Shown piece by piece: positions 2,596 to 13,439 of a stretch of 13,439 nt of DNA. The notes below the pieces were generated by a model. The model saw only the letters and a list, made by a program, of their open reading frames with translations, was not told where the DNA came from and searched no databases. Each line of letters starts with the position of its first letter. The first letter of the stretch is position 1. The translations under genes were made by a program, and so were the position numbers. The DNA is from a virus (Duplodnaviria > Heunggongvirae > Uroviricota > Caudoviricetes), in the IMG/VR virus record IMGVR_UViG_3300029653_000151, positions 1 through 13,439 of that record. The stretch is one strand, 5' to 3'.

Positions 2596-3405
2596 TTATT
2601 CTTCTGAATTATCGATTACACTGTATTCCCCGGTTAATACAGAGGAGTCTGCCGGATCGATTGTCAGTGGTTCCTTTTCATCCATTGATACTGCACGCTG
2701 GATTTCAATTGAGACAGGCAGGTATTTAAACAGGCGACGAATAGCCGTTTTTTTTGCCATTTCTTCCCAGTGAGTTACCCATGGCCCGTTATTACCAGCC
2801 TTACTCTGGCTGCGCACCAGTTCAATCTGTTTGCGCGTCATAACTTCAAACTGAGTCCCTCCGTCTTTCAGTCTTGCGACAGCATAGACGTGGGTCACTG
2901 GTGCATCTTCGTTTTCTCCCGGGCGGTGTATTAACTTTTCATCAAGGCCAAATTCAAAACTAAACTCGTCACCTTCACGGACAACACGGGCTGACAGGCT
3001 GGCGATTTGACCAGAACGGCGAGCCAGATCAATCATGCCGCGATAACCAATGATTAGCTGAACGTTCTTTTTACCGCTCTTTTCGTTTTTATTACCAAAA
3101 GGCAGTAAATATGCGTGGCCGAGGGCGCTACCTGGCTCAAGGCCGAGCTGTGAACACTGAACGATCGCACTGACAAAACTCATGGTGTCACAGTTTCCTA
3201 GCGCCGGAACCTTACGAATTTCTGTGGTGGCGATACGTATCATTCGTTCAGCCGTCATATGGCGTGGGAGAGCTGCTGCCAGTTGCTCTTTCATTGATGG
3301 CTGATTAATAAAGCTGATCACGTCGTTATTTTTTACTGCTGCTGGTGCACGGTTTCCCTGGGTTTTTTGCAGATCGGCTTTTGCGATAGGTGGTTGCTTA
3401 GTCAT
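2596..3405 (-). CDS. recT: RecT single-strand annealing recombinase (269 aa)
   Basis: [36 protein letters not shown]... matches recalled Rac RecT throughout; start chosen at the MTKQ ATG (3405), which overlaps the recE 3' end. Confidence 0.92.
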
Positions 3406-6074
3406 TTGCATACTCCTTAGCCCAGCGGGGCAGTGATAACGTTTTAATAGCTGGCCATTCATCGGTATTCAGGCAGTCAGCCAGGGTCCTCAGATTGCGG
3501 TGATATTCCTGCTGGCCTGCCAGTTTTGCTTCTTCGCCCATCATGAAAATCTCAACCGGGTAACGTCCGCATTCAACAGTTGTGCTGGCAACCAGAAAAA
3601 CGAAAGTTGGCAGCACACCAAACTGTGCTTCATAACCGTCACTGTAGAATGCATCCTGAACGTGATAGCGGTAGTCGTAATAAGCCGTTTTGAATCGTTG
3701 AATATCCGCTGTGGTTTTCACGTCCATGATCCAGTGAAATTCAGGGATAATTTTGTCCGGACGGCACCGACACAAAATTCCTGTTTCAGGATCTTCCCAG
3801 TAAATTGATGATTCAGCGTGTCCGGCGCTTTCAACAAGCCATTGACCCAGCGGCAAAGCCATAACGCTCTGATACATGAGTTCAATTTTCCGGCCTTCTT
3901 CGGCAGTGATAACCGTTTTTCCTGTGCTTGCGCATTCCATCAGAAACGCTTTCTCCTCTTCTTTTCCGGCGGTTGTACGGCGGTTAAATTCAGGTGCCAC
4001 GATAAAGCGGTTACTGAATTCTTCCGGTTCAAGTACACGGCAGTGGAAAGCGGTTCCTAAATCGAGCGTTTTTGTCTTTGTGGTGTCCACTGGGGGCATT
4101 TTTACGCCACAAATACAGAGCCGGAGTATCAGCAATGTCGTCGAGCTGAGACTTACTGACACCGGGACCCGCGTGGTAATTCTCATTCGAAATTCCGTAA
4201 TAAATACCAGGCTCTATGTCTCCTGCGATTACGGGATCTGCGACTTCGCCAGTTTCATCACTGCAATCGCGATGCGGATCGCTGCCAGCATTCTCATTGT
4301 GCGGATGTTCAGGGCCTTCCATTTCCTCCGGATCTTTTTCCTGAGATTCATCCAGATTTTCTTCATTAAAGGTTTCCTGATATGTGGTGTCGCCCATCAC
4401 CGCGCCACAATCAGGGCAGTTGCCGCCACCGCTCTGACCGCGGGCGGCACAGACTTTTTCCGGTTCCTGTTGCGCTACTGGTTCAGATTGTTTCGTTTCT
4501 GGCTCATTTTTCTGTGCATTTTGGCTGTTTTGTTCCGCTTTCTGGTTGTTTTGTTCCGATTTGGGCTGGTTCTGGTTCACAGAATCTCGGGTTTCAATTC
4601 CCTTAACCCATTTCGGATCATTCGGGTCGCTAATCCCTTCAACAAATTCTCCGCGAGAGGCAGCCAGTAATTTGTCTGCATCGACAGGATTTTTGGGCGG
4701 AATGTTTTTCCGGGCTTCATAGAGTTCTGCCCGCAGTTTCTGATATTTCGCATCAACAGAATTTACCTGTGACTGAGCATCCAGCGGCTGCGTGTCCTGA
4801 TGATGTTCAGTTGCATCCGGTTCCACTGTTTCAGCCGTTGCCTGTTCATCTGCCATTGCGCAAGATGGTTGCAGTTTTTCTTCATCATCCTGTTTTTCTT
4901 CTTCTGTTACACGCTGCGGCATCGGGGCAGAGGAACGACCGCAGGCAATATCCACGATTTCTGGATCAGGGTTGGCATGATCAGTTTCAGTCAGTACTTT
5001 GTTAAGATATTCAGTGACGTGTGCGGGGATAACCTCGATCCCAATTGGTGCTTCTTTTACGGACGCAACCACGATGGCGCGGGAATAATCCAGCCCGCCA
5101 GGCATGGTGATGAATTTGTCGCGGAAAACAGAAAAGGGCGGTTTATTTTCAGCGATAATTTCCTCGACACGTTTAGCGTGTGCCGGATGAAGGTTATAAA
5201 TGTCCACGTCCATTGAACGAGCCAGTACGCCAGTGGCTACGTCGCGCGCCAGTGACGTCAGATCGTGAATGAAACCTTCGCCGCGATCGGTGAGGTTCCC
5301 GCCGCCAGCATTAGCGCCGGAAGCCGTGCGCGTGATGCGTGAAACACGATTTCCTTTCATCCACTCTTTTGTCAGCAGACCGCGATCGGTGTAGTCTGCG
5401 TCCAGGTATGCTTCGAAAAAAGCAGTCATCAGCCCCAGGCTTGAATTGCCTGGATTAGGGAAAACTCTGTCAGTATCACGCACCAGTTTGTGGAGATCGC
5501 GAATTTCCAGCGGGTCGAGCAGGCTGGTTTTGTGGGAAACAGCCAGGGCAGTAACGGCTGGTAGTTCTTCAGCTCGTGCAATGTGTAATGCCTGTAGTTC
5601 GTTGCGTGAAACGTGCGTTACCGGTTTTTCGCTGCCGTGTTGAGCAAGCCAGCGAATGGGCAGCTCCTGACCGGAAATCGGGAGTAGCATATTCTCCTCA
5701 ATCTCCGTCATGTCTTCGCCATTAACATTGGTATTGTCAGTGCTGGCTGGCTTGTCCTGCGCAGAGGATGAGGGCGCGATAAATACCATTGTGATGCCAT
5801 CTTCCCCGCCTTTTTCGTAACGGTTGCAGAATTCCGTATCAAATACGCCTTCTGGTGGAAGGTCATCAACAACGGGCAAATTGACGCGAACAGGTTTTTT
5901 AAAGTCATCTTCATCGTAGCCAGCATCGTCAATCGCAACAGCACCACGGGAGATGGCAATGGATAATTTTTTCGCTTCAGCCCAGTAGAAACCGCCTTTA
6001 ATACCGAGACGTTTTCTTACTTTGTCATTTTTTGCTTCGTAATACAGTGGGTAAACTTGTTTATCGGTGCTCAT
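3398..6074 (-). pseudogene. recE: recE (exonuclease VIII) split by a frameshift into a 681-aa N-terminal ORF (4029-6074) and a C-terminal nuclease-domain ORF (3398-4186)
   Basis: Two minus-strand ORFs in different frames overlap by 158 bp and together read as one RecE. The upstream frame reaches ...[10 protein letters not shown] then runs into nonsense and a stop; the downstream frame continues [19 protein letters not shown]... through the PD-(D/E)xK motif (RPDK...IMDVKT) to ...WAKEYAND. The switch sits at a G5 run (plus 4092-4096). Confidence 0.75.
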
Positions 6075-6180: not shown

Positions 6181-6450
6181 TCACCTTTTAATTTCATTGC
6201 AATCAGAGTTGCCAGAAATTCGGCTTTTTTTTTCTGCGGGCAGATTCTTTCCTATGTGCACCAGACACATTTTTTTAACACCATCGTTAAGTGTTTTAAC
6301 GTTGCCTGATGGACCGTCGATATCAACCACAGTGAATGGGGTTTCTTTATTTTCTGTCTTAATCACGTAGCCAATACGCTTTCCTTCCAGGGTAACTTCG
6401 TGAACAATGTCATCAGTAGTAACAACAGTGGCTTCATAACTGGTAATCAT
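6181..6450 (-). CDS. racC: RacC-like protein (89 aa)
   Basis: MITSYEATVVTTDDIVHEVTLEGKRIGYVIKTENKETPFTVVDIDGPSGNVKTLNDGVKKMCLVHIGKNLPAEKK... matches recalled Rac RacC; AAGGAG 6 nt upstream of the ATG at 6450. Confidence 0.75.
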   Translation of the reverse strand: MITSYEATVVTTDDIVHEVTLEGKRIGYVIKTENKETPFTVVDIDGPSGNVKTLNDGVKKMCLVHIGKNLPAEKKSRISGNSDCNEIKR

Positions 6451-6524
6451 GTTTTTCTCCTTAATTAAGGTTGAGCGAATCCCTGCCATTGCTGGCATAA
6501 ATTCAGTTTCGGATAGTCAGTTAA

Positions 6525-6916: not shown

Positions 6917-7324
6917 AATTATCTCCATTTTTACAAATGAATTTTGTCGATGCGGTGCCTGGTGCCTCCAGGTGACGTTAACCAGTTAACAATTAACGCC
7001 GGATAATCCACCCATAACACTGATGCTTTTAACTGTGCCGCGTGCGCTTAGCCGCATTCACTGCATCACAAAATTCACTTTAAAAAGGGGCGGCAGGGCA
7101 GCCACGGAGTAGAACTGATGCCGCCAAAGACTACACATAGCAATGTCGTTATTTACAACCGGAGGCGCACTCCCACCATTTAAATTTAACAGACAAGAAC
7201 GACTCTTTATGGATATCGGAAATGCGCCTTCGTGTTGTGCCCGGTTTTATTTCACCACCTCCGGGCTTTGGTGGTTTCTGCTATACCCCTACAGCGAGAA
7301 TATTGAATTAATCCAAATAATGGA

Positions 7325-7659: not shown

Positions 7660-7710
7660 TAAACACAATACGTTTTCTTGTGTCAACACGGAATGTGTTT
7701 TGTGGTGGGT
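7660..7710 (-). promoter_or_regulatory. PL-like leftward early promoter with overlapping operator-like palindromes
   Basis: On the minus strand: -35 TTGACA (plus 7691-7696), 17-nt spacer, -10 TTTAAT (plus 7668-7673). Overlapped by inverted repeats acacaa-N9-ttgtgt (7673-7696) and aacac-N5-gtgtt (7695-7709) that resemble the palindrome between racR and ydaS. Confidence 0.5.
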
Positions 7711-7782: not shown

Positions 7783-8202
7783 TTACTCCGGTGGGGGATT
7801 ATCTTTAAGCCTGCCTCTCAAATATTTTTCTACATACTCATCGATTTCTTTTAGCCGGACTTCAAATAGCTCAATCATTCGTTGTTGTTCTGAGCCCGGT
7901 AGCTGGTTAAACAACTCAAGAAGTTTTCGTTGGGATTCATTTAACCACAATTCAGAAGATTCCTGTTCTCCAAAGAGGAGCTCAGGAGGAGATATGCCAA
8001 GTGCCTTTCCCAATATGACAGCGTCATGCACTCCAACATTTCTGCTGCCCGCCTCATAGTTACCTATACGCGATTGCGTCCATCCGCAGATTTCAGCAAG
8101 TTTTCCTTGAGATAAACCAAGCTTCTGCCTGCGCTCTTTAAGACGCATTGCAATTTTGTCATTGAGCCTACTAGCGGCAATTTTTTCGTTTTCTTTTTCC
8201 AT
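7783..8202 (-). CDS. racR: RacR-like XRE/cI-family prophage repressor (139 aa)
   Basis: N-terminal helix-turn-helix (LSQGKLAEICGWTQSRIGNYEAG); divergent from the cro-like ydaS across an operator-bearing intergenic region. Shorter than the 158 aa I recall for K-12 RacR, so allelic identity is uncertain. Confidence 0.7.
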   Translation of the reverse strand: MEKENEKIAASRLNDKIAMRLKERRQKLGLSQGKLAEICGWTQSRIGNYEAGSRNVGVHDAVILGKALGISPPELLFGEQESSELWLNESQRKLLELFNQLPGSEQQRMIELFEVRLKEIDEYVEKYLRGRLKDNPPPE

Positions 8203-8298: not shown

Positions 8299-8541
8299 AT
8301 GAACAAAATTTCAACATATCGAAAACAGCTTGGGCTGTCTCAAAGACAACTTGCTGTTCAGTTAGGGTGGATACAAAGCCGACTGGCAAATTACGAAGCA
8401 AATTTTCGTACCCCTGGACTAGAGGAGTGCAGAAAAATTGTTTCTACCCTTAATCGGCTTGGCGCTCATTGTGGACTTGACGATGTATTCCCCCCAGACG
8501 GTAAGCATAGCGAAAACAGCATAGGAGCGGTTGATTCATGA
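8299..8541 (+). CDS. ydaS: Cro-like helix-turn-helix protein (80 aa), YdaS-like
   Basis: HTH segment LGLSQRQLAVQLGWIQSRLANYEA; divergent from the repressor; stop overlaps the ydaT start (ATGA). Confidence 0.7.
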   Translation: MNKISTYRKQLGLSQRQLAVQLGWIQSRLANYEANFRTPGLEECRKIVSTLNRLGAHCGLDDVFPPDGKHSENSIGAVDS

Positions 8542-8963
8542 AAATCAGGCATAAGCACATCGAATCAGTGTTGTTAGCCCTGGCAGCCGAAAAAGGGCAG
8601 GCGTGGGTCGCTAACGCAATTACTGAAGAATATCTGCGCCAGGGGGGGGGCGGCGAATTGCCCCTTATACCAGGCAAGGACTGGAACAATCAGCAGAATA
8701 TCTATCACCGTTGGTTGAAAGGTGAAACGAAAGCGCAAAGGGAAAAAATTCAGAAACTGATCCCTGCGGTTCTGGCAATTCTTCCGCGCGAGCTGCGTCA
8801 CCGACTCTGCATCTTCGATACCCTGGAACGCCGTGCATTACTGGCGGCGCAGGAAGCGTTGAGTACGGCAATTGATGCGCATGATGATGCAGTCCAGGCC
8901 GTTTACCGGAAAGCACATTTCAGCGGTGGTGGGTCGCCCGGCGATTCTGTCGTAGTGCATTGA
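8538..8963 (+). CDS. ydaT: YdaT-like protein (141 aa)
   Basis: Position directly after ydaS with ATGA overlap; length matches the roughly 140 aa I recall for K-12 YdaT. Contains a G9 homopolymer (8642-8650) encoding Gly-Gly-Gly-Gly. Confidence 0.65.
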   Translation: MKIRHKHIESVLLALAAEKGQAWVANAITEEYLRQGGGGELPLIPGKDWNNQQNIYHRWLKGETKAQREKIQKLIPAVLAILPRELRHRLCIFDTLERRALLAAQEALSTAIDAHDDAVQAVYRKAHFSGGGSPGDSVVVH

Positions 8964-9007
8964 TTGAAATTAATCGTGCCGGATTGTTTTGTTCGGTATC
9001 AGTTAAA

Positions 9008-9426
9008 TGTAACGACGCGAGCGTTACAAGGTGAAAACAAATGGCTTCAAACTGGATAAAGCTCGAGGTTATTACGCCGGATAAGCCGGAAATATTCAGG
9101 CTTGCTGAGATTCTGAATATTGATCCAGATGCCGCATTAGGGAAGGTTATTCGCTTCTGGGCATGGGCGGATCAACAAATGATAGACGGTAATGCAGATT
9201 GTAACGCTCGCGGCGTTACAAAAAGTGCAATAGATCGCATCACTTTTATGGCTGGTTTTGCTGATGCGTTAATTCAGGTTGGATGGCTGGTCGAAAATGA
9301 CGTTGGGCTTTCTCTACCTAACTTTGAACGTCATAACGGAAAAAGCTCAAAAAAACGGGCGGTTACAAACGAGCGAGTTACAAAAATACGCGAACTGAAA
9401 CGAAAGGGTAACGCTGCCAGCGTTAC
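9008..9426. repeat. Cluster of gtaacg-N7-cgttac palindromes and gttaca half-sites: candidate origin iterons or regulator binding sites
   Basis: tgtaacg-acgcgag-cgttaca (9008-9028, upstream of the ydaU ATG); ttgtaacg-ctcgcgg-cgttacaa (9199-9221); direct half-sites gttacaaacgagcgagttaca (9362-9382); gtaacg-ctgccag-cgttac (9408-9426). Sites 1 and 2 are the same 21-mer in opposite orientation with one mismatch. Confidence 0.5.
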
Positions 9427-9829
9427 ACAAACGGATCAAAAAGCGTTACCAGAGGAAGAGGAAGAGGAAGATATAAATACTGATCTCCCCCTAAATCCCC
9501 CTCGCCAAAAACGAGCGTCTAAAAAATTCGAGCCGGAGGCTATCGAGCTGCCTGACTGGTTGCCGGAAACACTCTGGCATGAGTGGGTTCAGTTCAGGCA
9601 GGCATTGCGAAAACCGATTCGAACGGAGCAGGGCGCTAACGGGGCGATACGGGAACTGGAAAAATTCCGTCAGCAGGGTTTTACACCTGAGCAGGTGATT
9701 CGACACAGCATCGCCAATGAATACCAGGGCTTGTTCGCACCGAAAGGTGTTCGGCCTGAGACGTTGCTCCGACAGGTTAACACCGTCTCGTTGCCGGACA
9801 GTGCGATCCCGCCAGGCTTCAGGGGGTAA
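9041..9829 (+). CDS. ydaU: Phage replication initiation protein, lambda O-like / YdaU-like (262 aa)
   Basis: Sits directly upstream of a DnaC-like loader as in O-P type modules; carries internal palindromic repeats and an acidic EEEEEED stretch. Confidence 0.65.
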   Translation: MASNWIKLEVITPDKPEIFRLAEILNIDPDAALGKVIRFWAWADQQMIDGNADCNARGVTKSAIDRITFMAGFADALIQVGWLVENDVGLSLPNFERHNGKSSKKRAVTNERVTKIRELKRKGNAASVTQTDQKALPEEEEEEDINTDLPLNPPRQKRASKKFEPEAIELPDWLPETLWHEWVQFRQALRKPIRTEQGANGAIRELEKFRQQGFTPEQVIRHSIANEYQGLFAPKGVRPETLLRQVNTVSLPDSAIPPGFRG

Positions 9830-9835
9830 CAGACC

Positions 9836-10582
9836 ATGAAAAATATTGCGACAGGCGGCGTTCTGGAGCGTATCCGCAGACTGACCCCACCACATGTAAC
9901 CGCCCCATTCAGAACGGTTGCGGAGTGGCGTGAGTGGCAACTTGCTGAAGGCCAGAAACGTTGCGAGGAGATCAACCGCCTGAATCGTCAGTTGCGGGTG
10001 GAAAAAATTCTGAATCGCTCTGGCATCCAGCCGTTGCACCGTAAATGCTCGTTTGCGAATTACCAGGTGCAGAACGACGGCCAGCGATACGCGTTAAGTC
10101 AGGCGAAATCCATCACCGATGAACTGATGACCGGGTGTACAAATTTTGCGTTCAGCGGAAAACCTGGTACCGGGAAGAATCACTTAGCGGCAGCTATCGG
10201 GAATCGCCTGCTGAAAGACGGTCAGACAGTGATTGTGGTTACCGTGGCTGATGTTATGAGCGCCCTGCACGCCAGCTATGACGACGGGCAGTCAGGCGAA
10301 AAATTTTTGCGGGAGCTGTGCGAAGTGGATCTGCTGGTTCTTGATGAAATTGGCATTCAGCGCGAGACAAAAAACGAGCAGGTGGTGCTGCACCAGATTG
10401 TTGATCGCCGGACAGCGTCGATGCGCAGCGTGGGGATGCTGACAAACCTGAACTATGAGGCCATGAAAACATTGCTCGGCGAGAGGATTATGGATCGCAT
10501 GACCATGAACGGCGGGCGATGGGTGAATTTTAACTGGGAGAGCTGGCGTCCGAATGTCGTCCAGCCAGGAATTGCGAAGTGA
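9836..10582 (+). CDS. ydaV: DnaC/IstB-like AAA+ helicase loader (248 aa), YdaV-like
   Basis: Walker [16 protein letters not shown] and Walker B LLVLDEIG; 248 aa matches the length I recall for K-12 YdaV. Confidence 0.85.
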
Positions 10583-12982: not shown

Positions 12983-13439
12983 TAGACTGGCCCCCTGAAT
13001 CTCCAGACAACCAATATCACTTATTTAAGTGATAGTCTTAATACTAGTTTTTAGACTAGTCATTGGAGAACAGATGATTGATGTCTTAGGGCCGGAGAAA
13101 CGCAGACGGCGTACCACACAGGAAAAGATCGCAATTGTTCAGCAGAGCTTTGAACCGGGGATGACGGTCTCCCTCGTTGCCCGGCAACATGGTGTAGCAG
13201 CCAGCCAGTTATTTCTCTGGCGTAAGCAATACCAGGAAGGAAGTCTTACTGCTGTCGCCGCCGGAGAACAGGTTGTTCCTGCCTCTGAACTTGCTGCCGC
13301 CATGAAGCAGATTAAAGAACTCCAGCGCCTGCTCGGCAAGAAAACGATGGAAAATGAACTCCTCAAAGAAGCCGTTGAATATGGACGGGCAAAAAAGTGG
13401 ATAGCGCACGCGCCCTTATTGCCCGGGGATGGGGAGTAA
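12983..13439 (+). mobile_element. IS2 (IS3 family) insertion sequence, partial: terminal inverted repeat, leader and orfA; the rest lies beyond the window
   Basis: Starts with tagactggccccctgaatctccagacaaccaatatcac..., which I recognise as an IS2 terminus; followed by the InsC ORF. IS2 is about 1.3 kb, so it runs past the window end. Confidence 0.85.
13074..13439 (+). CDS. insC: IS2 OrfA (InsC) transposase DNA-binding subunit, 121 aa
   Basis: [58 protein letters not shown]... matches recalled IS2 InsC; stop TAA at 13437-13439. The frameshift-fused OrfAB would continue beyond the window. Confidence 0.85.

Follow-up and report, generated by a model that had tools for sequence, protein, structure and literature searches.

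The ydaT gene of a Rac-like lambdoid prophage contains a run of nine consecutive G nucleotides (G9), and this tract is probably a mutational hot spot that arose by accident and through which the gene is easily inactivated, not a phase-variation device maintained by selection. Judged by allele sequences, G9 is a rare, derived form of ydaT whose ancestral run was six G (G6). In public assemblies, forms with one G fewer (G8) or one more (G10) occur in backgrounds otherwise identical to G9. Throughout, the window denotes the whole stretch of DNA that was analysed, 13,439 nucleotides in length.

The ydaT gene and its prophage setting

The window is the left half of the prophage, which lies beside copD-yebY and the ryeA/sdsR sRNA locus. 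Its genes are arranged in the order integrase, excisionase, ralR/RalA, recT, recE, kilR, a DicF-like RNA, a repressor gene on the minus strand, a cro-like HTH gene, ydaT, and the ydaU-like and ydaV replication genes. In the window, as in its annotated twins, ydaT follows the cro-like gene, is divergent from the repressor gene, and precedes the replication genes, and this flanking gene order fixes it in the cII position of the lambdoid early-right operon. The features relevant to the analysis are as follows.

7783..8202, minus strand: immunity-region repressor gene, CI/RacR-like and divergent (Pfam HTH_3 and HTH_31, annotation)
8299..8541, plus strand: Cro-like HTH gene (YdaS analogue), with a 4-nt overlap with the ydaT start (Pfam HTH_3, annotation)
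8531..8548, plus strand: predicted YdaT-box TTGATTCATGAAAATCAG, from a pattern search, with one mismatch to TTGATT-N6-AATCAA and the ydaT ATG in its spacer
8538..8963, plus strand: ydaT, the 141-aa G9 allele of a CII-like transcription factor (translation, Pfam PF06254, RefSeq WP_016236035.1)
8640..8678, plus strand: codons for residues 35-47, the loop from alpha2 to the recognition helix alpha3 of the HTH (AF2 model, family alignment)
8642..8650, plus strand: G9 homopolymer, running from the last base of the Gln35 codon through GGG GGG to the second base of GGC
8658..8963, plus strand: in-frame TTG (Leu41) to stop, a putative separate 101-aa ORF in the gene calls of G8 contigs
9041..9829, plus strand: ydaU-like replication gene (RefSeq 'phage replication initiator YdaU family')
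9836..10582, plus strand: ydaV replication gene (Pfam IstB_IS21 and Bac_DnaA)

The window protein matched the Pfam family PF06254 (YdaT_toxin) with an E value of 5.2e-11 and a score of 43.3 bits, against a cut-off of 21, and the identical gene is called ydaT in RefSeq. Most of its 119 homologues are annotated as YdaT family proteins. Homology is full length and end to end with two structures in the PDB, 8BT1 (CP-933P YdaT) and 3C4R, both of which are CII-analogue factors of lambdoid prophages. At the DNA level, the gene is 92% identical to that of Rac YdaT from K-12 (P76064), with which it shares the same slot, a predicted YdaT-box over the start codon, and the predicted fold. The window protein differs from the Rac and CP-933P proteins in having one extra loop glycine (141 versus 140 amino acids) and a G9 run instead of G6, and the cro-like and repressor genes of the window are of a different immunity type from the RacR/YdaS of Rac.

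YdaS and YdaT are seen in the literature as analogues of Cro and CII and not as a toxin-antitoxin pair, and no evidence of toxin-antitoxin behavior was found in a 2010 study (PMC5917428, PMC9986795, PMC11879457). YdaT forms tetramers and is a transcription factor with a POU-like HTH that recognizes the target TTGATT-N6-AATCAA (PMC9986795). The Rac protein activates a reverse promoter for the repressor via a YdaT-box over its own ATG, and its over-expression or de-repression is lethal (PMC11879457). The preliminary description of the tract had drawn on the reported toxicity of YdaT; the 'toxin' label is a historical misnomer, and this CII-like transcription factor has toxic effects only on over-expression (PMC5917428, PMC9986795, PMC11879457). 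The operator predicted at the ydaT start in the window, TTGATTCATGAAAATCAG, corresponds in position to the YdaT-box footprinted in Rac, ATGATTCATGAAAATCAA (PMC11879457). A second and weaker YdaT-box-like inverted repeat, TTGATTGAAATTAATCGT, with two mismatches, lies at window positions 8960-8977 and spans the ydaT stop codon. We speculate that a YdaT tetramer could bridge the predicted boxes at the two ends of the gene.

Elsewhere in the window, Rfam matches were obtained to SraC/RyeA and SdsR/RyeB at the prophage-chromosome junction (462-606), to the RalA antitoxin sRNA opposite ralR (2168-2346), and to the DicF-like RNA between kilR and the repressor gene (7088-7139). From about position 12983 to its end at 13439, the window departs from four of five sister prophages and runs on into a copy of IS2, as in strain MSB1_4I. 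The window is identical to none of the complete genomes and so derives from yet another strain.

The nine-G tract and its presence in other assemblies

Nine consecutive G were read from the sequence at 8642-8650. They lie in frame as CAG GGG GGG GGC GGC GAA, encoding Gln35 Gly36 Gly37 Gly38 Gly39 Glu40, and translation thereby confirmed the earlier claim that the tract specifies four glycines in ydaT. The companion claim, that gain or loss of a single G would truncate YdaT, held as well; the predicted G8 product stops after 59 amino acids and the predicted G10 product after 62. A tract capable of slipping, situated inside an ORF (codons 35-39) and truncating the product upon a change of one nucleotide, is a feature of contingency loci. 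The G9 is the only G/C run of seven or more in the window, the runner-up being a C6. When the window is shuffled by mononucleotide, a G/C run of nine or more arises about 4% of the time, and related prophage DNA from IMG/VR had just two such runs in 1.23 Mb. An overlapping function on the minus strand was considered and rejected, as that strand has short mechanical ORFs alone (8450-8689 and 8574-8801) and Rfam gave no match at the tract.

Five complete genomes (CEA601S, AF3, AF10, AF14, and MSB1_4I) contain the same prophage at the same copD-yebY site, 99.9% identical and with G9. The sixth G9 genome, 61_150228, has the tract in another immunity context, with flanks that differ within 30 nt on both sides, and its sequence suggests either an independent G6-to-G9 expansion or short-patch recombination. 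In that genome (L137, NZ_AP026099.1), the G9 ydaT is found at 2923-3348 behind a different YdaS-type cro gene and repressor; its substitutions 27-40 nt upstream of the tract resemble K-12, and its bases 22 nt downstream resemble DEC5A. The exact 141-aa product was encoded by 276 contigs and indexed in 653 blocks of a public collection. G9 products of five other protein backgrounds were found in 59, 115, 20, 6, and 5 contigs, and the K-12-type G9 product was found in 3. Four other homopolymers vary in length among six near-identical prophages; the G9 does not.

The tract had been flagged initially as a likely site of sequencing error, and for the G9 state that worry can be dismissed. An error in the window itself, with a true length of G6 or some other value, is scarcely credible. 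At another site, 4092, the window does have a homopolymer indel that seems private to it (G5 versus G4), but six complete genomes share its G9, as do three contigs from IMG/VR or JGI and the 276 contigs with an identical protein, and these independent assemblies effectively refute such an error. The indel just mentioned lies in recE on the minus strand (4088-4092), where all relatives covering the site have G4, and it splits recE, 891 aa elsewhere, into ORFs 3398-4186 and 4029-6074. Either the frameshift is private to the window or the source assembly has a homopolymer error at this site.

Tract lengths among ydaT alleles

Tract length was surveyed in 5,426 complete E. coli genomes by means of synthetic probes whose variable flank positions had been replaced by N. 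The masking ensured that ranking was set by tract length alone, since plain BLAST mixed tract length with flank substitutions. The numbers of complete genomes with each tract length were as follows.

G5: 3 (D4, D9, and FDAARGOS_1285), all annotated 'frameshifted'
G6: at least 723 exact, the common allele
G7: 1 (DEC5A), annotated 'frameshifted'
G8: 0
G9: 6
G10: 0

More than 99% of ydaT alleles were G6 (CAG GGG GGC GGC, 140 aa), including that of K-12 (CGCCAGGGGGGCGGCGAA), and the G9 allele was present in 6 of the approximately 1,430 complete genomes with ydaT. A sample of IMG/VR yielded 112 G6 alleles, one G5, and seven interrupted runs (three GGGGGA, three GGGAGG, and one AGGGGG). All seven sequenced phages with a ydaT match, over 421 to 423 nt, had the G6 allele length. 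A flank-independent pattern for G7 or longer retrieved three IMG/VR contigs and one JGI contig, and a lineage-specific pattern with the CTTATACC flank had no matches in IMG/VR. Comparison across the ydaT alleles of other genomes, which had been proposed as a check on the tract, showed that its length is not invariant, with lengths from G5 to G10 recorded among assemblies, and that interrupted runs occur. Nor is the long tract conserved across alleles in the way that would be expected of a contingency locus, there being at least 723 genomes with G6 versus 6 with G9.

The G9 allele equals the common G6 run plus exactly GGG, which keeps the frame. The closest allele with a shorter tract that was fetched, the G7 of DEC5A, is only 2 to 3 substitutions from the G9 alleles. 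This origin of G9 from G6 by an in-frame GGG was not seen in the preliminary description.

The glycine run in the predicted YdaT structure

An AF2 model of the window protein (mean pLDDT, 81) has predicted helices at residues 5-19, 21-34, 48-59, 65-81, and 84-128, and Gly36 to Gly39 would open the loop formed by residues 35-47. The model and the alignment to 8BT1 and 3C4R indicate an N-terminal POU-like HTH with a long alpha2-alpha3 loop and a long C-terminal helix. In the crystal structure of CP-933P YdaT the equivalent loop is Leu35-Glu49, and within the YdaT family it is unusually long, at 9 to 23 residues, with no conserved residue (PMC9986795). Homologues in the family alignment have two or three glycines at the site of the run. 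Two residues of the recognition helix, R58 and W59, are invariant in an alignment of 30 sequences and have counterparts in Rac (R57/W58) and CP-933P (R60). Because the insertion opens a loop of variable length, we infer that a fourth glycine is tolerated and that the 141-aa protein is probably still a working CII-like regulator.

G8 and G10 derivatives of the G9 allele

Predicted products of tracts from G5 to G12 in several protein backgrounds were looked up by exact sequence, and the counts given are of contigs. Truncated YdaT matches as such were rejected as evidence of frameshifts at the tract: one 101-aa match, P0018, starts just past the tract, but its contig has a G6 tract and a 1-nt deletion further upstream. 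Because of this ambiguity, such matches were replaced by the exact look-ups of synthetic products, which gave the following counts.

Window type (MKIRHKH): G6, 3; G7, 1; G8, 11-17; G9, 335; G10, 7-11; G11 and G12, absent
L137 type: G6, 0; G7, 0; G8, 1; G9, 115; G10, 0
DEC5A type: G5, 16; G6, at least 1,000; G7, 6 or 12 (two look-ups, indistinguishable); G8, 1; G9, 20; G10, 0
MKIKHEH-LVPG type: G6, 47; G8, 1; G9, 6; G10, 5

For the window type, G8 was found in 11 contigs by look-up and in 17 contigs that were read, and G10 in 7 by look-up and in 9 that were read for the commoner of its two products. In gene calls, the 101-aa ORF beginning at Leu41 was called at 8120-8425 in contig L141 and at matching positions in L143-L150. 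In the K-12 background, the G8-type truncated product was present in 24 contigs, the G5-type in 221, and the in-frame G9 in 3; the greater abundance of G8, a +2 variant, than of its in-frame neighbor may reflect one much-sequenced lineage.

Approximately 26 of 502 contigs in the pooled G9 backgrounds were out of frame, compared with 4 of 1,430 complete genomes of the G6 type (odds ratio, about 19; p = 3e-12), a comparison that spans different data sets, all assemblies on one side and complete genomes on the other, and in which contigs do not equal phylogenetically independent lineages. Expressed as frequencies, G8 and G10 occurred on about 5% of contigs in G9 backgrounds, and variants of one nucleotide made up about 0.3% of G6 alleles. 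None of the six G9 alleles among complete genomes was out of frame. In the L137-type background 1 of 116 contigs was, which makes the out-of-frame excess uneven across backgrounds. The notion that the tract is prone to slippage gains support from these data, as G8 and G10 in public assemblies are about 20 times commoner than one-nucleotide variants of G6, and with their truncated products the same excess bears out the proposal of an easy route to inactivation. Indel rates in E. coli increase exponentially as runs lengthen, with G:C runs of 8 bp already standing out as outliers (PMC8510543).

Ten G8 and seven G10 contigs had no further indel relative to the window over 0.6 to 12 kb, aside from polymorphisms known among the G9 genomes. 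The G8 and G10 contigs fell into both sub-haplotypes defined by A or G at 7670 and had private SNPs and no common derived SNP, so that they look like recurrent, independent events and not one clade. One identical G8 contig was recovered in six samples, and G10 was found twice within a single study series, in separate samples, and also in an isolate assembly from NCBI. The IMG/VR G10 contig is two substitutions from G9 contigs. At the contig level, lengths corresponding to ON and OFF states of a contingency locus were thus both present among close relatives, with the possibility that some are artefacts.

Origin and consequences of the long tract

We propose that in-frame slippage by GGG would have converted CAG GGG GGC GGC to CAG GGG GGG GGC GGC. 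The added glycine would open the length-variable HTH loop of a regulator that probably still works, and the longer run would be an accidental by-product, far more open to replication slippage. From this allele, G8 and G10 derivatives encoding fragments of 59 to 62 amino acids would then have arisen repeatedly. Those fragments should be null alleles because they are without the recognition helix and the tetramerisation helix. Such nulls could persist because ydaT is repressed in lysogens and needed only at the establishment of lysogeny, or because it is harmful when de-repressed. By analogy with lambda cII, loss of YdaT is expected to impair the establishment of lysogeny and not its maintenance. 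A prophage with G8 or G10 should therefore be maintained normally, yield progeny that are poor at establishing lysogeny, and be protected from YdaT-mediated killing on de-repression.

Several observations weigh against a hot spot of this kind. At a run of nine G, some or all of the G8 and G10 calls could have arisen as artefacts of the library or the assembly, contigs are not independent counts, different data sets supplied the frequencies of G6 and G9, and the complete G9 genomes and the L137-type contigs are wholly or almost wholly in frame. The presence of G9 on at least six protein backgrounds could also reflect recurrent expansion, recombination, or selection for a long tract. It may be argued that the tract is stable and that the G8 and G10 of the databases, together with G5 and G7, are errors of sequencing, PCR, or assembly, an account that we regard as unlikely but worth keeping in view. 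The complete assemblies of the three G5 genomes and of DEC5A (G7) were each made with a single technology and may well contain long-read homopolymer errors, and FDAARGOS_1285 has a frameshifted ydaU next door. The private extra G in recE, the differences among the six near-identical prophages at other homopolymers, and the fact that several G8 and G10 contigs are short, derived from metagenomes or Logan, and of unknown coverage also fit with error. However, the G8 and G10 contigs have no other homopolymer indels over as much as 12 kb, and a noisy assembly with six 1-nt insertions in 6.4 kb (L011) still has G9. Errors would likewise not readily give an identical G8 contig in six samples or G10 in two samples and an isolate assembly, and assemblers working by majority rule should keep the consensus at the per-read error rates of a 9-mer.

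It is improbable that the tract is an evolved contingency locus, in which a long G run has been selected as a reversible, stochastic ON/OFF switch of a CII-like regulator, such that lysogens would hedge between lysogeny-competent and lysogeny-incompetent phages or pre-empt YdaT toxicity on de-repression. The tract does lie in the 5' third of ydaT, where changes of one nucleotide give early stops, the backgrounds in which G8 and G10 both recur are identical to that of G9, the G9 tract itself extends to hundreds of contigs and at least six protein backgrounds, and YdaT expression is lethal on de-repression (PMC11879457). Against this, G9 occurs in 6 of about 1,430 complete genomes with ydaT and in none of the seven sequenced phages, the family-wide state is G6 or shorter with synonymous interruptions tolerated, and no reversion event could be demonstrated. 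About 95% of contigs of the G9 lineage are ON, and the two states are therefore not balanced. Mismatch repair in E. coli is efficient, and this species is not known to use homopolymer switches widely. The ydaT gene is silent, being repressed, in lysogens, and thus the OFF state would be without an obvious phenotype for selection. Published cases of phase variation by homopolymers in prophage regulators of E. coli were sought in the literature, and nothing specific was found. The stochastic on/off switch suggested in the preliminary description is thus unsupported, given a long tract that is rare and derived from G6, interruptions such as GGGAGG and AGGGGG that are tolerated, an in-frame majority of about 95%, and silence in lysogens. 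A true phase-variable switch in a regulator of lysogeny establishment, reversible and serving bet-hedging in E. coli, is a reading that we consider very unlikely; lysogens would then keep making virions unable to establish lysogeny, with the 'clear-plaque' behavior of cII nulls, or would hold prophage copies that are protected against killing by YdaT upon de-repression. Programmed ribosomal or transcriptional slippage at the G run is a matter of speculation, and RNA polymerase slippage is documented mainly for A/T runs.

If the G8 and G10 alleles are real, the accidental hot spot would be a natural E. coli case in which one in-frame slippage, from G6 to G9, created a site of repeated knockout. 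It would bear on the decay of 'toxic' genes in cryptic prophages; the ydaT locus has been described as one that 'remains unmutated' (PMC11879457). For annotation, ydaT pseudogenes labeled 'frameshifted' cluster at the tract, and for users of these strains, the CII-like function may differ between subcultures. No new mechanism is implied, as slippage hot spots are already well known.

Comparison with known systems

The ydaT tract resembles the contingency loci of Neisseria, Haemophilus, Campylobacter, and Bordetella in being a G run of at least 8 in the 5' part of a coding region, with ON and OFF lengths among very close relatives, and slipped-strand mispairing would be the mechanism in both. 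It differs from them in that the long tract is rare and derived, OFF forms account for about 5%, the host is proficient in mismatch repair, and the gene is silent in the lysogen. A parallel may also be drawn with the hot spots of E. coli mutation-accumulation experiments, such as the 8-bp G:C runs of leu tRNA genes (PMC8510543), with which the 20-fold excess of one-nucleotide variants at G9 over those at G6 is consistent. The evidence for ydaT, however, is natural variation among prophages and not laboratory rates, and its run would have been made by an earlier +3 slippage. Lambda cII is a functional analogue: its product is an HTH tetramer that activates the promoter for repressor establishment and has toxic effects on over-expression (PMC5917428, PMC11879457). 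There is no sequence homology between the two, YdaT being composed of a POU-like domain and a four-helix-bundle tetramer (PMC9986795).

Other length polymorphisms in the window

Three further sites in the window vary in length among relatives. A T9 run at 6225-6233, which is A9 on the coding strand of a small minus-strand ORF (6181-6498), is T8 in about 12 loci and T9 in 8 loci. The T9 form is labeled 'frameshifted' in RefSeq and the T8 form encodes an intact hypothetical protein of 91 aa; the two states of this A/T run are more evenly balanced than those of G9. In the ydaU-like gene, a tandem hexamer, (AGAGGA)x3, at 9451-9468 encodes a Glu-rich stretch; it has one copy fewer in L151 and one more in L133 and L136, an in-frame polymorphism. 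An intergenic run at 371-377, after yebY, is A6 or A7 among the six near-identical sequences.
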